Source: Planctomycetota bacterium
GTDB lineage: Bacteria > Planctomycetota > UBA8108 > SXIK01
Reading direction: 5' to 3'
Assembly: GCA_965223845.1 (NCBI GenBank)
Contig: CBDCXR010000004.1
Location: 7,776,001 to 7,840,000, forward strand
DNA: 64,000 nt
How positions within the stretch are numbered: the stretch's first letter is position 1; each line of letters starts with the position of its first letter. The notes below the pieces were generated by a model that saw only the letters and a list, made by a program, of their open reading frames with translations, was not told where the DNA came from and made no database searches. Positions 54,138 through 63,174 of the stretch are shown one piece after another. Both the position numbers and the translations under genes were made by a program.

Positions 54138-54362
54138 TTCTCTGTCCGAGGGTTCTGCGTCCTTGGGCTCGGCTCGGACGAGGTCACCCGGCGCCATGGT
54201 TCGTGGGCGGCCGGACCCTCTCGCGCTGACGAAACGGCGTATCGATCGCTCGGGCGCGCCTCGGCTTCGACGCGGAATCAGCCCGCCGGAGCGTCGTTGC
54301 AACTCTCACCGGTGCACCTCCTTACGTCGATGGTCGGCGCGAGGTGGGCGGTTCCATTTTGC

Positions 54363-54391
54363 TTGTCGATCGACAGGCGAATCTGTACAGT
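54363..54391 (+). promoter_or_regulatory. possible sigma70 promoter for the EF-G paralog operon
   Basis: TTGTCG, 17 nt, TACAGT. Confidence 0.35.
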
Positions 54392-54601
54392 CTACGCATC
54401 CGTCGAAGCGATTCCCGACCGCGCCTTCGGATGCCGGTCACGGCGGCCGCGACGAGCGCCCGAGACCTCGACGCTCCCCGCCCCGGACGGACGTGCGTGC
54501 GATACGTGCACTCGCGCGCAGCGTCCCGCTGCGATGAGGTTCGACGGATGGAGCCCCGCCCGGTCGGGTGGGGCCGCTCCCCGTTTGGAGGACAACCGAG
54601 C

Positions 54602-56626
54602 ATGGCAGCGAGAACACCGCAGACGACGCGGAACGTCGCGTTCTGTGGACATGGAACGTGTGGAAAAACGACGCTGATCGAGGGTCTCCTCGCGAAGGCG
54701 AAGGCGATCTCTCGACCGGGCTCGGTCGCTGACAAATCGACGGTGTGCGACTTCGACGACCTCGAGAAGGAGAAGGGCTACAGCATCGATCTCGCGACGG
54801 CGCACCTCGATCACGGCGGGGCGACGGTCAATATCATCGATACTCCGGGATACCGCGACTACGTCGGTCAAGTGTACTCCGCCGTGCGCGCGATCGAGTG
54901 CATGATCGTCGTCGTCGACTCCGACGACGGCGTCCGGCCGAACACGCGCAAGGTGTGGGAGATCGCCGATCAGGCGGGAGTTCCGCGCATCGTCGTGATC
55001 AATCGCTGCGATCGCGAGCATGCGAAGGACGACGAAGTCGTCGCGGAGCTCCGTGAGCAACTGAGCCCGGCTTGCCATCCGATTCAGAAGCCCGACGCGA
55101 TCGGCCCCTCGTTCTCGTCCGTATCGAGCCTCGTCGGTGGGGAAGGCGGCGAAGATCTTCAGGACGCGATCGCCGAAGCGGACGACGATCTGATGGAGCG
55201 CTACCTCGGCGGCGAGGACGTGAGCGCCGAGGAGTGGCAGAGCGGACTCGTCGCCGCCGTGAAGAGCTGCAGCGTGTTTCCCGTGCTCTACGCGGCCGGC
55301 GAGAAAGACATCGGAACTGCGGAGCTTCTCGATGCGATCGTCGAGCTCGTCCCGAATGCGAGTGAGAGCCTCGGGAGAACGTGCTCGAAGCCAGCGGATG
55401 GTGACGCCGAGCCGGAGCAGGTCCCCGTCGCTACCGACGTCGATTCGCCGCTCTGTGGATTCGTCTTTCGCGTGGCGAGTGATCCCTACGTCGGGAAGCT
55501 GTCCTACGTGCGCATTTTTTCCGGTTCCCTCGCTGCGAACGGAACGTTCTACAATCCGAATTCGCGCAAGATGGAGAAGGCGGGCAAGTTCGTTCGGCTC
55601 CAGGGTAAGGAGCAGGAGGCCGTCGAGTCTGCGGTCGCGGGCGACGTGATCGCGCTCGTCAAGGTCGAAGGCTTGAAGGCGTTCGATACGATCACCGCGG
55701 GCGAGCCACTCGCGCTCGCAGCGCCGAAGCTGCCGATGCCGATGTACCGCCGCGCGGTGGGACCAAAGTCGAAGGCCGACGAAAAGAAGTTTGCCGAAGC
55801 GATCGCCAAGTGCATCGACGAAGATGTCATGTTCGCCGGCGACCGTGACAAGCGGACGCACGAGCTGGTCGTTTCAGGCGTGAGTCAGCTCCACCTCTCG
55901 GTGCTCTGGGATCGACTCAAGGGGCGCTACGGCGTCGAGGTCACCACGACGGAGCCGAAGACTCCGTACCTCGAGACGATCACTGTGAATGCCTCCGGGA
56001 GCTATCGTCACAAGAAGCAATCGGGCGGCGCCGGTGAGTTCGCCGAAGTGCACCTTCGACTCGAGCCGCTCGAGCGCGGCTCCGGGCACGAGTTCGTCAA
56101 CTCCGTGTTCGGCGGTGCGATCGCCGCGACCTACGTTCAGTCGGCCGAAAAGGGCATCCGGGCCGCGCTCGAGTCCGGAGTGATCGCGGGTTACCCGGTC
56201 GTCGACGTCAAGGTCGACATCTACGACGGCAAGGAGCACCCCGTCGACTCGAAGGACATCGCGTTCCAGAAGGCGGGTCGCGAGGCGTTCAAGGTCGCGT
56301 TCCAGGAGTGTAAGCCCGTGCTTCTCGAGCCGATCGTGAACCTCGAGGTGACCTTTCCGGTCGAGAACATGGGTGACATCCAGGGCGATCTCAACCGCCG
56401 CCGCGGCCGCGTCGTCGGGATGGACGCGGTCGGAAGCTTCCAGACGCTCAAGGCGCAGGCGCCCCTCGCTGAGATCTCCGACTACGCGACGACGCTCGGC
56501 TCGATGACGGCGGGACAGGGAACGTTCGACATCGAGCTGTCCCACTACGAGGTCGTCCCGTCGAACCTGCAGCAGAAGATCTGCGAGCAGGCGAAGGCGG
56601 AACTCGAGAAGGACCAGGTCGCGTAA
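54602..56626 (+). CDS. elongation factor G paralog (EF-G2 type)
   Basis: GHGTCGKTT, IIDTPGY, INRCD, YLETI, KKQSGG.G.FA, H.VDS, LLEPI. Confidence 0.92.
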   Translation: MAARTPQTTRNVAFCGHGTCGKTTLIEGLLAKAKAISRPGSVADKSTVCDFDDLEKEKGYSIDLATAHLDHGGATVNIIDTPGYRDYVGQVYSAVRAIECMIVVVDSDDGVRPNTRKVWEIADQAGVPRIVVINRCDREHAKDDEVVAELREQLSPACHPIQKPDAIGPSFSSVSSLVGGEGGEDLQDAIAEADDDLMERYLGGEDVSAEEWQSGLVAAVKSCSVFPVLYAAGEKDIGTAELLDAIVELVPNASESLGRTCSKPADGDAEPEQVPVATDVDSPLCGFVFRVASDPYVGKLSYVRIFSGSLAANGTFYNPNSRKMEKAGKFVRLQGKEQEAVESAVAGDVIALVKVEGLKAFDTITAGEPLALAAPKLPMPMYRRAVGPKSKADEKKFAEAIAKCIDEDVMFAGDRDKRTHELVVSGVSQLHLSVLWDRLKGRYGVEVTTTEPKTPYLETITVNASGSYRHKKQSGGAGEFAEVHLRLEPLERGSGHEFVNSVFGGAIAATYVQSAEKGIRAALESGVIAGYPVVDVKVDIYDGKEHPVDSKDIAFQKAGREAFKVAFQECKPVLLEPIVNLEVTFPVENMGDIQGDLNRRRGRVVGMDAVGSFQTLKAQAPLAEISDYATTLGSMTAGQGTFDIELSHYEVVPSNLQQKICEQAKAELEKDQVA

Positions 56627-56635
56627 GGCGGGCGG

Positions 56636-57565
56636 GTGCGGCGTCGAGTGCTTCGGGCGAGCGGGCTCTTCGCAGGGGGCTTACTCGCGATCGTTGTTGC
56701 ATCGCCGCGTTCTGCCATCGCCCAGGAGGGCGGCATCGAGGTGTTCGCGGCGGAAACGCTCTTTAGCGAAGGCTGGAGGGTTTCCGCGAGCTGGATCACC
56801 AAGCGACGCGACCGCTTGTTTCACGGCGACAGCAGGACGAGCGATCCTCAGCATCGCTCTCTCGAAGAGCATCGCGCCGTGCTCGGAGTCGACTACGGTC
56901 TCCTCCCCGAGCTCACTCTTTCGCTTCTCGTTCCGAGCGTCTACCGGGAAGCCCGGGTCGGTTCGCGACGCCTCGAATCGTTCGGCCTCGGCGACGTCGC
57001 TGCGCTCGGAAAGTTCCGTCTCTTCAAGGTCGATGGACGGCGCCGGTCGTTCAATCTTTCGCTCGTCGGCGGACTCGAGCTCCCGACCGGGGAGACGCGC
57101 GAGCGAGACGATGGCGGGCGACTCGATCCCACGCTACAGCCGGGCTCGGGCTCGTGGGATCCATTCGCAGCGCTCACCGCGACCGGCGACCTCGATCTTT
57201 GGCGATTCGACGCGCACGCGTTTTACAAGCTGAATACCGAGGGCGCGCAGGACTTTCGCGAGGGCGACTTTTTTTCCTTCGAGGTCGACGCCGCGTATCG
57301 CTTTTTCTACACGGAGTATCCCGGCCCGACGGCGAGCGCGCGCGTCGGACTTCAGTGGCGGCAGACGGGACGTTCGAAACAGGACGGGAGAACGCGTGAA
57401 GACTCGGGGTCGCACCAGCTATTCCTCCGGCCGGGGCTTTCGTACCATCCGATTCCGGCGCTCGACGTCTCCGTTTCGGTGGACATTCCGCTCTATCAAT
57501 ATTTCCACGGGCGTCAGCTCGCGCTAGACTACCGGTGGTTCGCGGCGATCGGGCTTCGCTTCTGA
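56636..57565 (+). CDS. outer-membrane beta-barrel 'transporter' (Phenol_MetA_deg/SphA-like)
   Basis: Signal peptide; GLGDV, GLELPTG, LQPGSGSWD; amphipathic strands; C-terminal Phe (AAIGLRF). Confidence 0.8.
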   Translation: MRRRVLRASGLFAGGLLAIVVASPRSAIAQEGGIEVFAAETLFSEGWRVSASWITKRRDRLFHGDSRTSDPQHRSLEEHRAVLGVDYGLLPELTLSLLVPSVYREARVGSRRLESFGLGDVAALGKFRLFKVDGRRRSFNLSLVGGLELPTGETRERDDGGRLDPTLQPGSGSWDPFAALTATGDLDLWRFDAHAFYKLNTEGAQDFREGDFFSFEVDAAYRFFYTEYPGPTASARVGLQWRQTGRSKQDGRTREDSGSHQLFLRPGLSYHPIPALDVSVSVDIPLYQYFHGRQLALDYRWFAAIGLRF

Positions 57566-57624
57566 TCGGAGCGACGACGGCGCCCCCTGACCGCGGAAAC
57601 TCACTTGTGGATCGAACTCCCCGA

Positions 57625-58200
57625 ATGAAGAACACTCATCGCGCGCTCCTCGCAACTTCGGCGCTCCTCTTCGCCGTGAGCTGCGAGTTGCCCGGACCGG
57701 CGCCGGGCGGCAAGTCGTTCGCGACGCTCACGCTCCTCGTCGACAGCTGAATCTGAAACGACAAGGCCTTCGGTCTCGAGAAGGCCCTCCGGCGCCGGGT
57801 CGGCGCCGATCGCATCGAGCTCGACGCGCGCGACGGAATCGCCCGGGCCCACATCGATCGTCCGCGCAAGATCGATCTCGCCGCCGCGGAGCGAGCGGCC
57901 TACGGAGCGGGATATACGCTGAAGCGGCTCGACATCGAGGCGGATGGGCGCGTCGAGACCGTCCGCTGCGCGGAGTGCGTCCGCGACGTGTCGGTGTTCA
58001 AGCTTTCGACGGGGCAAACGTTCGAGCTGGGCGACGCGCCGAACGGAGCAACGAGCGCGAGCGGCGAACAGCGACTGCGGATCCGGATCGAGGCGGGGAA
58101 GACGTTCCCGCCGGCGCATCCGGTGTTCTCGCCGGTGGCGGCGCCGAGCACTCCGAAAGTCACTGAGTCGTCGCCGTCGGAAGCCCGCGACGAAAGCTGA
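57625..58200 (+). CDS. candidate selenoprotein: lipoprotein with HMA-like domain, U-I-U motif (TGA at 57748 and 57754) and downstream CxxC; 191 aa with readthrough
   Basis: One continuous frame: MKNTHRALLATSALLFAVSC...LTLLVDS*I*NDKAFGLEKALRRRVGADRIELDARDGIARAH...AAERAAYGAGYT...CAEC...; no in-frame ATG/GTG/TTG between 57757 and 57987; SECIS-like hairpin right after the TGAs. Confidence 0.7.
57765..57786 (+). promoter_or_regulatory. bacterial SECIS-like hairpin
   Basis: GGCCTTC-GGTCTCGA-GAAGGCC: 7-bp stem with an apical loop starting GGUCU; loop starts 21 and 15 nt after the two TGAs. Confidence 0.6.
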
Positions 58201-58230
58201 AGCTACTTGCGGTCTTCTCGGAACTCCGGT

Positions 58231-59886
58231 TTATCGTTCGCGCGCGTGTCGAATTCGCGCAGCGATGCACGCGGCTACGAGGCCGACGACCGTTGCGGCT
58301 CCGAAGAAACCTGAGTAGCAACCGGCGATGGTCGCGCTCCGGGTCGCGTCGGTGGCCCAAGGATCGAGCGCTTGGTTGAGCGCGAGGAACGGAAACGCCG
58401 CCACCAGCTGCGCGGGGCTAGAGGGGGGGAGACCGACCGTCGAATCGACGAGCAGTGGGAGGACGATGTTCCACGCTGCCAGGACACCGAACGCCAAAAC
58501 GAGCGCGTTCACGCTGCGTCGACAGACGACTGAAATGAGTACACCGGTGGCACCGCAAAGAACGTAGGTGACGGCAGTGATGACGATCGCAGCGGGAACT
58601 GCCGCGCGGGGCGCCTCATCGTCGAGGAGGGCGAACGGGAGAATTACGACGAGCGGTCCGACGAGACACGCTCCGGAGTAGAGGCTCGAGTAGAACTTCC
58701 CGATGACGATGCGAGGCATCGTGATGAGCGAGCTCCGGAGAAAGTCGATGTTTCCCTGCTCGATCTCTCGCGTGAAGCTCGTCGACGCCACTGCCGTGAC
58801 AAAGAGGAGAGTGAAGAAGAGGTTGAGGTTGAAGAGGGGGTAGAGACAAGACACGCCCCCATCTGCAGCCACCAGGGCGATGAGGAGGTAGAGCATGAAG
58901 ATAGACCCGAACGCGATCACGCGGTACTGAACGCGTGAGAAGAACTCGCTGCGAAGCTCCTTCTGAAAGATGGGATTCTCGAACCCGGGAAGCGATTTTC
59001 CCAGCCGCATCAAGACACGCGTGAGCCAGGTTCGGGCGAGCTTGCGAGGTTGCTCGATGAGACCCTGAGTAACCGTCATCGGCGCGTCGCTTGTCTCAGC
59101 GTCGTAGGGGCGTCGAGTTCGTCGCAGGAGGTACCCGAGATGGGGGACCGCCACGATGGTGCTCGCGATTGAGTAGATCACGAACGCGGTCCGCAGCGAA
59201 CCGAACGGTTGGAAGGGGCCCTGGTACCCTGCGATCACGATCGGGCCGTACGGGGTGAGGGACATGATCAGCGTCCCGTCGGCCGCTCGGCCGATCGACG
59301 CCATGAGGGCGAGAACGAGCGATAGTCCGCCGTTCCAAAAGAGAAGCCATGCGATCGAGCGGATCACCGCTCCGGCCGTCGTCTTCGCGCGAAGGGAAAC
59401 AGTGAGGCAGACGAGCGTCGAAACAGTGACGGCGATGAACGTCGTTGCGTAGGTGATGATGACCACCTGCGTGTCGAGGCCGCCGAGCAGGTAGAGGAGA
59501 CAGATGACGGGGGCGCACGCGACGATGAGAATGACCGTGTAGCCGATCGACGAGAGGAACTTGGAGAAGACGATGGAGGAGGGGCGGAGCAGCGTCGAGT
59601 AGACGAGGTCGAAGGTGTTGTTCTCGCGTTCACTCGTAAACGCGAGCGCGGAAAACGCCGGGACGATCACGAGCGCCGCCGTGAGCTGAGCAACGGCGCA
59701 GAACAGGAAGAGCTCGGCGTTTCTCACCGAATCAGCATGTGCGTTTCCGTGGAAGGTCGGCCAATTCATGAGCGGGACCGCCGCGGCACCGGCCACTCCG
59801 GCCAGGAGAAGCCAGATCGCGCGGCGCGTACGGAGATGGCCGATGAGCTCGCGGCGGAGGAGGGGAAACTCGAACAAGAGGTTCAC
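58231..59886 (-). CDS. ABC transporter permease (two ABC-2-like membrane domains)
   Basis: PLLRREL, FTSERENNTFDLV...SKF, ENPIFQKELR, FTREIEQG.IDFL...GKF. Confidence 0.88.
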   Translation of the reverse strand: MNLLFEFPLLRRELIGHLRTRRAIWLLLAGVAGAAAVPLMNWPTFHGNAHADSVRNAELFLFCAVAQLTAALVIVPAFSALAFTSERENNTFDLVYSTLLRPSSIVFSKFLSSIGYTVILIVACAPVICLLYLLGGLDTQVVIITYATTFIAVTVSTLVCLTVSLRAKTTAGAVIRSIAWLLFWNGGLSLVLALMASIGRAADGTLIMSLTPYGPIVIAGYQGPFQPFGSLRTAFVIYSIASTIVAVPHLGYLLRRTRRPYDAETSDAPMTVTQGLIEQPRKLARTWLTRVLMRLGKSLPGFENPIFQKELRSEFFSRVQYRVIAFGSIFMLYLLIALVAADGGVSCLYPLFNLNLFFTLLFVTAVASTSFTREIEQGNIDFLRSSLITMPRIVIGKFYSSLYSGACLVGPLVVILPFALLDDEAPRAAVPAAIVITAVTYVLCGATGVLISVVCRRSVNALVLAFGVLAAWNIVLPLLVDSTVGLPPSSPAQLVAAFPFLALNQALDPWATDATRSATIAGCYSGFFGAATVVGLVAACIAARIRHARER

Positions 59887-59923
59887 GGTCGTCCCTTAGC
59901 TCCAGCCTCTGGGCGATTCGGGC

Positions 59924-60934
59924 TCAAGCGATTTTTCCTTCAGTGAGTTTCATGAACGCCGCCTCGAGGTCGACGACGTCTTCCGCGAACTCGATGAACG
60001 CGATCCCCGCGCCGACGAGAGCACTCGGAATGGCGCTGATCTCGGCATCGGAAGCCGTAATTTCAATTCGGAGAACGGCACCGTCCGAGCGGACGGCCGA
60101 CACTCCCGCGAGCGGCTCTAGAAGCTCGATCGCTCGCTTCTCGTCGTCGCGCTCGAGGAGCTTCAGCGAGAACTCTCGGTGGCGGCGGAGACTGCGGAGG
60201 ATCTCGTCGACATTCCCCGCGGCGACGAGTTGTCCCTGCTCGAGGATGCCGACCGAGTCGCAGATCGCCGAGAGCTCGACGAGGATGTGACTCGAGACGA
60301 GGATCGTCTTTCCCATCGTCTTCAACTCGCGGAGGAGCTCGCGGAACTCGATCCGCGCCCGGGGGTCGAGCCCCGACGCGGGCTCGTCCAGAATGAGCAC
60401 CGCCGGATCGTGGAGGAGGGTCTTCGCGAGGCACGCACGCTGCTTCATCCCCTTCGAGAACCCGCTGACCAGATCGCGGCGCTTCGAGCCGAGGTCGGTC
60501 AGTGCCAGGACATCCTCGATCATCGCCCGCCGCCGCTTGCGCGCGAGCCGGTAGGCCGCGGCAAAGAACTCGAGGTACTCGTCGAGCGTCATATTGTCGT
60601 ACACCCCAAACGAGTCGGGCATGTAGCCGACGAACTCCTTGACGCGCTGCGGGTTCTTCTCTACGTCTACGCCGAGAATCTCGGCGCGTCCTTTCGAAGG
60701 CTTGAGGAGTCCCGCGAGGATGCGGATCGTGGTCGTCTTGCCGGCGCCGTTCGGGCCGATGTAGCCGAAGATCTTTCCGCACTCGATTTCGAGGTCGAGC
60801 GAGTCGAGGGCCGGCTTGTCGCCGTACATCTTGGACAGACCCTTCGTGTAGACCGCCGCCGAAGGCGCGCCTTCTGGCTTGGGCGTCGTCGGCGGTTCGA
60901 CGGGGGACGCGGCGGCGTCGATGGGCTCAGTCAT
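59924..60934 (-). CDS. ABC transporter ATP-binding protein
   Basis: GPNGAGKTT, FSKGMKQR, LILDEPASGLDP, SSH. Confidence 0.96.
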   Translation of the reverse strand: MTEPIDAAASPVEPPTTPKPEGAPSAAVYTKGLSKMYGDKPALDSLDLEIECGKIFGYIGPNGAGKTTTIRILAGLLKPSKGRAEILGVDVEKNPQRVKEFVGYMPDSFGVYDNMTLDEYLEFFAAAYRLARKRRRAMIEDVLALTDLGSKRRDLVSGFSKGMKQRACLAKTLLHDPAVLILDEPASGLDPRARIEFRELLRELKTMGKTILVSSHILVELSAICDSVGILEQGQLVAAGNVDEILRSLRRHREFSLKLLERDDEKRAIELLEPLAGVSAVRSDGAVLRIEITASDAEISAIPSALVGAGIAFIEFAEDVVDLEAAFMKLTEGKIA

Positions 60935-63174
60935 CTATTCCCAAGCTCGGAGAACTGTGACGGCAGCTCGAAAACAACAAACGAGATTGCGCGGTGCGTC
61001 TCGAACCGCTCCGTCGGTGAAAAGAGCCCCCGAGTCGTCACTGCGATGATGTATCGCGGCGAGAATCCGGCTAATGTCGACGCCGATTTAGCTCGACGGC
61101 GGTGTCGCCACGAGTTCGGGTCATCCGAACGACCTGGATCGAGCGCGAGTCCGAGCGCGTCAAGTACGACGGTCAATTCGTCGGGTTCCGGAAGCCAATC
61201 CGGTTCTCGCGCGTCCGTCGGATGGCTGGCCTTGCGTGCCAGGGCGCGGATTTTCGCTGCGAGTCCGGACGAGCGAAACGGGTCGGTCGAGAACCAAACT
61301 CGATCCCAGAGGGACGTCGCACGATCCTCGAGGCCGAAGTCCGCCTCCTCGTCCGCGCGGAGAGGCTCCTTGCGGAGGACGAATCCGGACGGAGCTTGCG
61401 AAACGAGCAGAATCTCGTCCTTCCCCTCATTCTTCAATCGAAGCGAAGGCCCGTTCGCGCCCCGTTCGTAGGACCACGAAAGATCAGTGAGATCAGTGCG
61501 ATGGTCGATTCGGAACGAGCGCCGGGCGTTCGTGGAGATTCGAAACGGGGCGAGCCACATACGCCCTGACGCGTCGAGCCGAATCGGTGTGTCCGGATGC
61601 TGGACTTCCATGTGCGACCGCAGGTCGCTCACTCCGGTAAGCGGATGGATCCGCGGCGGGAGTCCACCGTCAGCGGCGGCGAATTCCCGCCCGGCGAGAT
61701 CGATCACTCGCGGCTTAGGTGAGAACACCGATACGAACGAAGTGGCGTCACACGTTTTGCCGTCGGCGTGCGCCACCGCGATGGTGAGTTCACTCAGTTC
61801 TGGTTGCTCGACTGCGCTCAGTGCACCGAACTGATAAATCGCGATCGTTCCGACCGCCGCGGCCGCGATGATCGCCACGAACGCCAGCTCCCGCCGCCGG
61901 CGAAAGATCCACGCCGGGACGACGATCCCGATCGCCAGATAGAGGGCGAGGGCCGTCACCACGACCTCGCCCCTGGGAACGCGGAAGCTCGCCATCGAGT
62001 AGAGCTGAGGCACGACGACGTTTTCGACGAGTCCCAATCCGTACTCCCGATCCCCCGCGAAGGTCAGCGCCCGGGCGAGCGAAGGCTGAAGCTCTGAGTA
62101 GAGACCGGGCAGAGCGCTTTCCTGCGGGAACGAGTCTCCGAGCGGAGTGAACGAGCAGGTCTGCACGACGCCCGCGCCCCGACGATAGCGGAGCGAGAGC
62201 TCCGAGTGTCGCAGCAGATCGCGAAAATTGTCCACTGCGGCGGGACCGTCGGGGGCGATCGTATGGTACGCACCGGCAATCGATTTGCGCTCCGGATCGC
62301 CTGGTTCCGGCGGAGGCTCCGCCGCGGCGTCCCGCCGGAGTAAGCGGGCGACGACGTCCGGAACGTCGGCGCGGCGACCTTCGAGGCTGACACCGAGAAG
62401 GTCTCGAGTTTCCGGTGGAAGCCCCGAAGCCCACTCCGGCCCCGGAAACGCGACGAGCGTTCCGCCGCGCTCCACCCAGGTGCGAACCGCGTTGATCGCT
62501 TTTGGCTCCGTGTCGGCGAACGAGACTCCCCAGAGAACGATGAGCTGAAATGGCGCGAGCGCGTCCGCGAGACCGCTCAAGGCCTCGGGACGGACCGACT
62601 CGACGGTGAATGTCGGCCTCGGCCCCGAGTTTATCGCCGCGGGATCGTAGGGCGCGAGTCGACGGAGTAGCGCCTCCCCGAGCGGTTGAAATCTCGGGAC
62701 GTTTGAGTTCCCGAGAACGAGGATGCGTACGCGGACCTCTCGCGTGCTCACGTAGGGGGCATAGACCGTCCTTCGGTATCCGCTCTGCTCGAATCGGACG
62801 CGGAGCCTTCCGCCGCTTCGGAGGCCTCGAGCCGACATGTACGGGAGCGCGAGTTGCTTTGTCGCGCCGGAAGAGACATCGAGCTTGCAGCGGTAGCGGA
62901 CGGCGGATGGCTCACCCGCGACACCTTCGTCTCGGATCTCGACCGTACCGAAGAACGGCGCGCCGGTGTTCTTGACCCGGAGGGCGAGCGCGACGTAGCC
63001 CGCTTCCGGTGGTCGACGCATGAGCTCGACCTTCACCCGGACGTTTTCGGGGAGAAACTCCGGCGTGGATTCATCCCGCCCGCAGGAGGCGATCGAGGTC
63101 AGACTCACCACCGAGGCAGCCGCGAGTCCCAGTAGTCTGCCCAGTGATCGATCGAGCACGATCCCGCTCACCAC
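60931..63174 (-). CDS. ABC-associated membrane protein with GATase-like domain
   Basis: Signal ending IASC; AVRTWVERGGTLV GATase-like motif; two internal TMs; overlaps the ATPase gene. Confidence 0.75.
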   Translation of the reverse strand: MVSGIVLDRSLGRLLGLAAASVVSLTSIASCGRDESTPEFLPENVRVKVELMRRPPEAGYVALALRVKNTGAPFFGTVEIRDEGVAGEPSAVRYRCKLDVSSGATKQLALPYMSARGLRSGGRLRVRFEQSGYRRTVYAPYVSTREVRVRILVLGNSNVPRFQPLGEALLRRLAPYDPAAINSGPRPTFTVESVRPEALSGLADALAPFQLIVLWGVSFADTEPKAINAVRTWVERGGTLVAFPGPEWASGLPPETRDLLGVSLEGRRADVPDVVARLLRRDAAAEPPPEPGDPERKSIAGAYHTIAPDGPAAVDNFRDLLRHSELSLRYRRGAGVVQTCSFTPLGDSFPQESALPGLYSELQPSLARALTFAGDREYGLGLVENVVVPQLYSMASFRVPRGEVVVTALALYLAIGIVVPAWIFRRRRELAFVAIIAAAAVGTIAIYQFGALSAVEQPELSELTIAVAHADGKTCDATSFVSVFSPKPRVIDLAGREFAAADGGLPPRIHPLTGVSDLRSHMEVQHPDTPIRLDASGRMWLAPFRISTNARRSFRIDHRTDLTDLSWSYERGANGPSLRLKNEGKDEILLVSQAPSGFVLRKEPLRADEEADFGLEDRATSLWDRVWFSTDPFRSSGLAAKIRALARKASHPTDAREPDWLPEPDELTVVLDALGLALDPGRSDDPNSWRHRRRAKSASTLAGFSPRYIIAVTTRGLFSPTERFETHRAISFVVFELPSQFSELGNR

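Follow-up and report, generated by a model that had tools for sequence, protein, structure and literature searches.

Do two TGA codons that break a single reading frame two codons apart act as stops, or are they decoded as selenocysteine (Sec, U), and if so, what kind of protein results? This question is raised by a locus in a 64,000-nucleotide (nt) stretch of the genome of a Planctomycetota bacterium (GenBank assembly GCA_965223845.1, contig CBDCXR010000004.1, positions 7,776,001 to 7,840,000 of the forward strand), the whole of which is termed the window here, with positions counted from its first letter. One frame runs in it from ATG 57625 to TGA 58198-58200, and its sole breaks are TGA codons at positions 42 and 44. 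On the basis of their conservation, of the RNA structure that follows them, and of the Sec machinery encoded in the same genome, we conclude that the gene very probably codes for a genuine selenoprotein in which both UGAs are decoded as Sec. Its predicted fold, the register of its Sec residues relative to the ligands of Cys-containing relatives, and its gene neighborhood further suggest that it is likely to be a di-Sec lipoprotein of the HMA type, which would capture soft metals and hand them over beside an outer-membrane beta-barrel. The features of the gene that bear on decoding are the following.

57625..58200, plus strand: predicted selenoprotein gene, 191 codons plus stop, two UGAs read through
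57625..57684, plus strand: predicted lipoprotein-type signal peptide with lipobox Cys20 (TGC 57682-57684), recognized by inspection
57748-57750, plus strand: UGA, predicted to be read as Sec42; TGA in 29 of 29 distinct aligned members
57754-57756, plus strand: UGA, predicted to be read as Sec44; TGA in 29 of 29 distinct aligned members

Two conserved UGA codons in one frame

An earlier sequence-only reading had joined the pieces delivered by open reading frame (ORF) callers, 57535-57750 and 57988-58200, into one protein interrupted by two TGAs, and codon-by-codon inspection bears it out. Both pieces lie in the frame of the selenoprotein gene, and no in-frame ATG, GTG, or TTG occurs at 57757-57987, the first start candidate past the UGA pair being GTG 57988 (codon 122). 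The same reading had taken TGA to be an ordinary stop in this DNA; since TGA terminates both the upstream gene (57563-57565) and the selenoprotein gene itself, a changed genetic code is excluded. The possibility of an assembly error, which it had raised, finds no echo in the contigs of four individual sequencing runs, which show 0 differences over 57500-58250 (these runs come from two samples of one study, from which the assembly itself may derive). Translated with TGA as U, the product has 191 residues with the N terminus MKNTHRALLATSALLFAVSC, followed by LTLLVDS-U-I-U-NDKAFGLEKAL and, farther downstream, by C115-A-E-C118. By inspection of its signal peptide and lipobox, it is predicted to be a bacterial lipoprotein, as had also been proposed: all 14 aligned members share Cys20, with G, S, or A just ahead of it and a hydrophobic stretch before that.

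A six-frame search of 60 relatives recovered 14 homologues with U-I-U; they are 38-50% identical, and none lacks either of the in-frame TGA codons. All of them translate as a signal peptide, a lipobox Cys, about 20 residues, a strand, and then U-I-U-N-D-x-A-F-G, with conserved protein sequence flanking the UGA pair on both sides. We also scanned one genome for each of 185,579 species with a DNA motif that permits TGA, TGC, or TGT at both positions. Among the 49 matches were 30 true members in further genomes, all with TGA-ATH-TGA and none with a Cys (TGC/TGT) form of the site; the remaining 19, whose frames are riddled with stops, were set aside as chance. The members that carry a name are nearly all metagenome-assembled genomes of Planctomycetota, one being labeled Glaciecola and several being unlabeled. 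That 30 further genomes have TGA-ATH-TGA at this very place puts the UGA pair beyond chance. An even draw of 401 Planctomycetota genomes, with the window's own genome counted, gave matches in 22, and the in-frame TGA is kept in 19 of the 19 matches that span residues 42 to 44; with the own genome left out, the count is 18 of 18, with Cys in none. The other three matches begin past the site and are either U-P-x-U types or matches that do not cover it. In these genome surveys, every homologue that spans the positions singled out by the sequence-only reading keeps in-frame TGA there. Neither TAA nor TAG ever occurs at codon 42 or 44 in the 29 distinct aligned members. Over the 12 codons that lead up to the first UGA, pairwise differences amount to 0.457 at first, 0.328 at second, and 0.638 at third codon positions; third positions vary most, which indicates that the stretch upstream of this UGA is coding in the frame of the selenoprotein gene.

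Two structured elements follow the UGA pair.

57765..57786, plus strand: hairpin 1, candidate selenocysteine insertion sequence (SECIS), GGCCUUC paired with GAAGGCC, loop GGUCUCGA; minimum-free-energy (MFE) fold
57791..57807, plus strand: hairpin 2, GGCGCC paired with GGCGCC as its core, 5-nt loop, directly 3' of hairpin 1

In the MFE fold, the 60 nt past the UGAs form these two hairpins, the first of them setting in 14 nt past the first UGA and 8 nt past the second. A bacterial SECIS is by the usual standard a stem-loop shortly past the UGA with a G in its apical loop, and hairpin 1 agrees with it in both its 8/14-nt spacing and its loop, which opens with an invariant GG in the 29 distinct sequences. 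Over these sequences, 96.6% of the cells of both hairpins are paired, with compensatory changes in 4 pairs (hairpin 1, 94.1% and 2 pairs; hairpin 2, 99.4% and 2 pairs, GC to AU). The covariation score was reached by 0 of 500 shuffles, and controls in which the 3' partners were slid by 1 to 3 columns were 37-53% paired. The fold z-score of the 57 nt past the site averages -3.51 in the Sec forms (86% below -2; n = 29) versus -0.34 in the Cys-type relatives described below (8% below -2; n = 71). Two members with D-Q for E-K keep a hairpin, in our reading, by alternative pairing, and two tandem hairpins, the second of which matches hairpin 2, also follow the UGAs of a distant relative with U-P-I-U (L024). 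An Rfam search retrieved no SECIS family and only matches at the level of chance. We propose that hairpin 1 would recruit SelB with Sec-tRNA(Sec) and that hairpin 2 may assist decoding. With its close-set UGAs and two conserved hairpins, the family offers a compact test case for the action of SelB at neighboring Sec codons.

The genome also encodes the apparatus for this, and the selA, selB, selC, and selD genes on which the sequence-only reading had made its case depend are all present, with SelA (453 bits), SelB (320 bits), SelD (308 bits), and tRNA-Sec (68 bits) each above its cut-off. Of 61 relatives, 58 have SelA, every carrier of the family among them. Its co-occurrence was considered as a marker of carriers and rejected, as such a distribution does not discriminate carriers from noncarriers.

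The family is poorly visible in current databases, in line with the suspicion of the sequence-only reading that it is unannotated. The window's protein matches no Pfam family even at an E value of 10, and the sole NCBIfam match is to MerP (TIGR02052; residues 33-97, E = 0.069), whose cut-off of 92.55 bits is far above the 13.7 bits scored. When 1.84 billion representatives were searched with the profile, 293 clusters came up at an E value of at most 0.001; among the best 150 of these, 136 are calls of about 61 to 178 residues that start past the UGA pair, and those truncated representatives that were looked up are unnamed or called "hypothetical protein." A word-indexed search for homologues of similar length with the read-through protein returned nothing, because the database entries for the family are truncated. 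In the literature on selenoproteins, on Sec in HMA or MerP proteins, on UxU motifs, and on PF13557, we found no description of the family, the "MerP" sequences of the Global Ocean Sampling (GOS) survey being left uncompared. In a 2026 review (PMC13188914), HMA, MerP, lipoprotein, Planctomycet, and UxU are each mentioned 0 times. Hence, this is a widespread family that is systematically misannotated as a truncated hypothetical protein, shorn of its signal peptide and active site, and for which annotation pipelines lack a model.

The predicted HMA-like fold and its probable ligand positions

57718..57924, plus strand: HMA-like beta-alpha-beta-beta-alpha-beta domain, residues ~32-100; from AlphaFold2, Foldseek, and a weak MerP match
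57925..58140, plus strand: C-terminal beta-rich domain, residues ~101-172; strands of the model, at lower predicted local distance difference test (pLDDT) values

An AlphaFold2 model computed from a 14-row alignment (mean pLDDT, 78.7; above 90 for residues ~31-110) comprises a strand (33-39), a loop (40-44, D-S-U-I-U), a helix (45-59), two strands, a second helix (85-94), and a long strand. This is the HMA fold that the sequence-only reading had predicted, with U-I-U placed in the metal loop, and its first strand is encoded upstream of the UGAs. The best Foldseek matches of the model are CopZ, CopP, ZntA, CopA, and CCS, with target-normalized template modeling (TM) scores of 0.75-0.82 (CopZ 6ff2, 0.82, with a root mean square deviation of 1.9 Å over 66 columns; CopP 1yg0, 0.75). 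A profile search against solved structures gave an archaeal histone (E = 0.14) as its sole result, which we took to be chance. The pair C115 (57967-57969) and C118 (57976-57978), to which the sequence-only reading had drawn attention, is indeed present in the C-terminal domain of the window's protein and of its close relatives but is not conserved across the family, being absent from all eight rows of the g5 type, a whole carrier genus, in alignment A1; going by this pattern, we read it as a possible optional second site or disulfide.

The relation of the two Sec residues to the classical metal site emerged from the few representatives that include it. Eleven of the best 150 cover the site, and seven of these (P0136, P0139, P0142, P0143, P0146, P0150, and P0151) have C-P-F-C in the motif G-[LM]-S-C-P-F-C-A-[YF]-G-L-E-K-K-L, together with the C-terminal domain of the U-I-U family. 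A profile-profile comparison of the two types with hhalign (probability, 99.2; E = 1.4e-19; 157 columns) places U44 on the first Cys, K47 on the second Cys, and U42 on the L/M that precedes the first Cys by two residues, which is the register that had been proposed from the sequence-only reading. The canonical C-x-x-C motif is thus not found in the window's protein, which has U-x-U, with Lys in place of the second Cys. The site would accordingly have been remodeled from C-x-x-C to U-x-U, with U44 replacing the first Cys and U42 serving as a new ligand two residues earlier.

The same positions are filled in other combinations elsewhere. The representative P0112 has C-N-C-K-D-C, i.e., Cys at the positions of both U42 and U44. 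Within the phylum, three loci have U-T-U (L169, L170, and L173), and a further one (L168, 1-600; G334:C182) has three in-frame TGAs in the form U-T-U-N-D-U, the third at the place of the canonical second Cys; the contig of this last locus opens inside the gene, so that its N terminus is absent. A sister type, U-P-[IV]-U, keeps the canonical CxxC spacing (L024, L171, and L172); its member in L024 (1267-1860, minus strand) has GGVT-U-P-I-U-AGSLK, and the type is again a lipoprotein encoded directly 3' of a PF13557-like barrel gene. At the other extreme, a single in-frame TGA lies at the place of U44 in R-G-G-U-G-S (L167; G335:C79:3800-4800). Since Sec or Cys occupies positions 42, 44, and 47 in varied combinations, these positions appear to act as ligand positions; Cys homologues at the Sec positions are rare and distant, with none in the 401-genome phylum sample. 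The family thereby presents a metal-site loop with one, two, or three Sec residues (U, U-x-U, U-x-x-U, and U-x-U-x-x-U), and its register variants constitute a natural series on what selenium gains over sulfur in metal coordination.

Among characterized proteins, MerP (TIGR02052), CopZ, CopP, Atx1, and the N-terminal domains of P-type ATPases (PF00403) share with the window's protein the beta-alpha-beta-beta-alpha-beta fold and the placement of the ligands in the loop that joins strand 1 to helix 1. MerP is the best, though weak, family match and is likewise extracytoplasmic. HMA binders carry [GM]-x-C-x-x-C, whereas the window's protein falls below every family cut-off and, unlike them, has a lipid anchor, an extra C-terminal beta domain, an obligate pairing with a barrel, and no surrounding mer operon. 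Its MerP score and the lack of mer genes at all 31 U-I-U loci place it outside the MerP family proper. Two NCBIfam entries, NF041115 and NF045683 (a MerT/CopZ fusion-like selenoprotein), resemble it in being of the HMA type with two Sec residues as presumed metal ligands but keep the canonical U-x-x-U. The first of these is tabulated as a "metal-binding (seleno)protein" with UxxU and 2 Sec in the above-noted review (PMC13188914). Its profile is a single domain of 74 positions to which the window's protein, L010, and L015 have no match, while the U-P-I-U protein of L024, at 22.5 bits, stays far below the cut-off of 95. Hence, UxxU selenoproteins of the HMA type are already known, and it is the U-x-U variant family that is new. 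The GOS survey (PMC2398784) has a selenoprotein row "Mercuric transport protein MerP" with 2 sequences and 0 Cys homologues, and these sequences may belong to the U-I-U family.

A two-gene cassette and its possible roles

56636..57565, plus strand: partner gene, 309-amino-acid (aa) protein of the outer-membrane beta-barrel type with signal peptide; ends in GLRF, stop TGA

The gene directly upstream of the selenoprotein gene codes for a predicted barrel with 127 homologues at an E value of at most 0.001 (38-59% identity), which are mostly PF13557 and named as Planctomycetota proteins. Its nearest Atlas cluster is 93% PF13557 (score, 0.99); the window's own copy gives no Pfam family with hmmscan. 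Of the 30 member loci, 29 have a homologue of this gene immediately 5' of the selenoprotein gene in the same orientation, and the remaining one ends at a contig edge; the arrangement recurs in 15 of 15 loci of relatives, the U-P-I-U type included. No other neighbor is conserved in the member loci. This association defines a two-gene cassette with a barrel that is probably of the PF13557 type and would tie these barrels, of unknown function, to metal handling. An outer-membrane channel encoded beside an extracytoplasmic binder of soft metals has precedents in NosA/NosL and in PcoB with its periplasmic partners, which follow the same pairing logic, the barrel of the present cassette being probably of the PF13557 type.

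The C-P-F-C relatives, periplasmic proteins of about 170 to 190 aa, share both the architecture of an HMA domain plus a beta domain and the PF13557 neighbor, which adjoins their gene in 66-68 of 80 metagenome loci. They differ in having Cys at the canonical spacing, an ordinary signal peptide, no hairpins past the site, a frequent NHL-repeat lipoprotein nearby (48 of the 80 loci), and, in some cases, mer genes. By tblastn (E value of at most 1e-5), the 80 loci include 22 with MerR-like, 17 with MerT/HMA, 12 with MerA-like, and 5 with MerB matches, although the MerR-like, HMA, and reductase matches may include paralogues unrelated to mer. In one locus (L127, 1630-7385), and likewise in five others (L131, L144, L153, L159, and L152), the C-P-F-C protein, the NHL lipoprotein, and the PF13557 barrel sit inside mer-type clusters. 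Pfam recovers MerR, MerT plus HMA, a pyridine nucleotide-disulfide reductase, HMA, NHL, and PF13557 in L127 and MerB in L131; the C-P-F-C relative of L127 itself passes Pfam HMA (28.5 versus 24.8 bits), and its barrel passes PF13557 (47.7 versus 22 bits). These loci point to a module of mer operons, at the outer membrane or in the periplasm, of which we know no description.

Given a real selenoprotein, a role of the two selenols as metal ligands is favored, with some reserve. The complete explanation, which we regard as likely, runs as follows. With both UGAs decoded as Sec, the product would be a lipoprotein of about 170 mature residues, in which an HMA (ferredoxin-like) domain precedes a small beta domain and the two selenols lie in the strand 1-helix 1 loop, the place of the metal in HMA proteins. 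It would probably capture a thiophilic metal or metalloid (Hg, Cu(I), Ag, Cd, or As) and hand it over at the periplasmic face of the barrel, which it might contact physically. A pair of selenolates suits linear coordination of Hg(II), Cu(I), or Ag(I), and the three-ligand variants would suit trigonal sites, including those for As(III). Soft-metal capture and hand-over is the best-supported role because of the fold, the register of the ligands, and the company of the Cys-type relatives.

A number of observations weigh against this explanation. No mer or NHL genes occur in the flanks of the 31 U-I-U loci, and the window's own genome yields neither MerT nor a MerA above its cut-off. At the level of the protein, Foldseek gave no match at an E value of at most 0.001 (best, 2.5e-3), Pfam HMA is not matched at an E value of 10, and the MerP score is 13.7 against 92.55 bits. 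Three of the representatives covering the site deviate from a ligand series, P0017 having G-I-S and P0111 and P0132 having neither Cys nor Sec, and they might be derivatives that do without metal, or result from another reading. At the level of the RNA, the service of one hairpin to two UGAs that lie 6 nt apart is unusual. The optimal UGA-SECIS spacing in Escherichia coli is about 11 nt, which the 8- and 14-nt spacings bracket rather than match. Hairpin 1 overlaps the conserved codons of K-A-F-G-L-E-K-A, and protein constraint could explain part of its conservation; moreover, the related genomes are nonindependent, so that the covariation and z-score statistics are overstated. Finally, Sec incorporation is here a prediction from sequence.

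The alternative that survives best, though we consider it unlikely, retains a real di-Sec protein and takes U-x-U not for a metal ligand but for a redox centre of the selenol/diselenide kind, whose substrate would pass the barrel. Known bacterial selenoproteins are mostly redox enzymes, to go by the review (PMC13188914), and a UxU motif is reported in a rhodanese-type sulfurtransferase in another study (PMC1976440). The lack of metal-resistance genes next to any of the 31 U-I-U loci would also fit a redox function. Yet the fold is that of HMA and not thioredoxin-like, the Sec positions coincide with the metal-ligand positions of the HMA-passing C-P-F-C relatives beside MerT, MerA-like, and MerB genes, and the three-ligand variants C-N-C-K-D-C and U-T-U-N-D-U look like coordination sites.

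Clearly more doubtful is a reading of the cassette as a Se-dependent outer-membrane mercury trap of aquatic Planctomycetota, descended from a mer module, in which the invariant U-x-U-N-D loop would cleave the Hg-C bond of methylmercury or seed HgSe. Its ancestor would be an outer-membrane module of mer operons comprising an HMA-beta protein, an NHL lipoprotein, and a PF13557 barrel, as in the C-P-F-C loci. MerB cleaves Hg-C with two Cys and an Asp, and by analogy two selenolates and a nearby carboxylate would do so outside the cytoplasm; alternatively, inert HgSe would be seeded. The same reading would have the tandem hairpins permit Sec decoding of 2 to 3 UGAs within 6 to 15 nt.

That the UGAs are read without Sec, by a near-cognate tRNA for Trp, Cys, Arg, or Gly under stimulation by the hairpins, is highly improbable. 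Conserved downstream structure could stimulate such readthrough too, and the identity of the inserted residue comes from sequence considerations. Nevertheless, the genome has the full Sec machinery, and every carrier among the relatives has SelA; Cys stands at both positions in homologues, the Cys-type relatives are without the hairpins, and TGA is the sole stop ever seen at the two codons. Least credible of all are TGAs that act as true stops, yielding a 41-residue lipopeptide and a separately started protein, or that mark a pseudogene or an assembly error: the gene callers agree with such stops, and 136 of the best 150 representatives start past the site, but the fold takes its first strand from sequence ahead of the TGAs, many families of the phylum keep the arrangement at identities of 27-50%, the contigs of the four runs do not differ, and, because 57757-57987 holds no in-frame ATG, GTG, or TTG, the HMA core could not be produced from a separate ordinary start, which would remove the whole of it.

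Other genes around the cassette

The genes that flank the cassette in the window, namely, those for an EF-G-like protein, an ABC-2 permease, an ABC ATPase, and a 747-aa protein, were considered as parts of the system and rejected, as this neighborhood is not conserved elsewhere. A promoter/terminator scan found no promoter-like site and one terminator-like site, on the minus strand, that is not above the level of shuffled sequence.

54344-56626, plus strand: 760-aa EF-G-like GTPase paralogue, directly upstream of the barrel gene
58231-63174, minus strand: three genes convergent to the selenoprotein gene, for an ABC-2 permease, an ABC ATPase, and a 747-aa protein

The GTPase paralogue has a weak match to the SelB family (57 bits). 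Among the convergent genes, the permease shows a weak GldF-like match and the 747-aa protein a weak match to DUF4350; together, the three genes look like a gliding-type ABC transporter, and they do not accompany the cassette in other loci.

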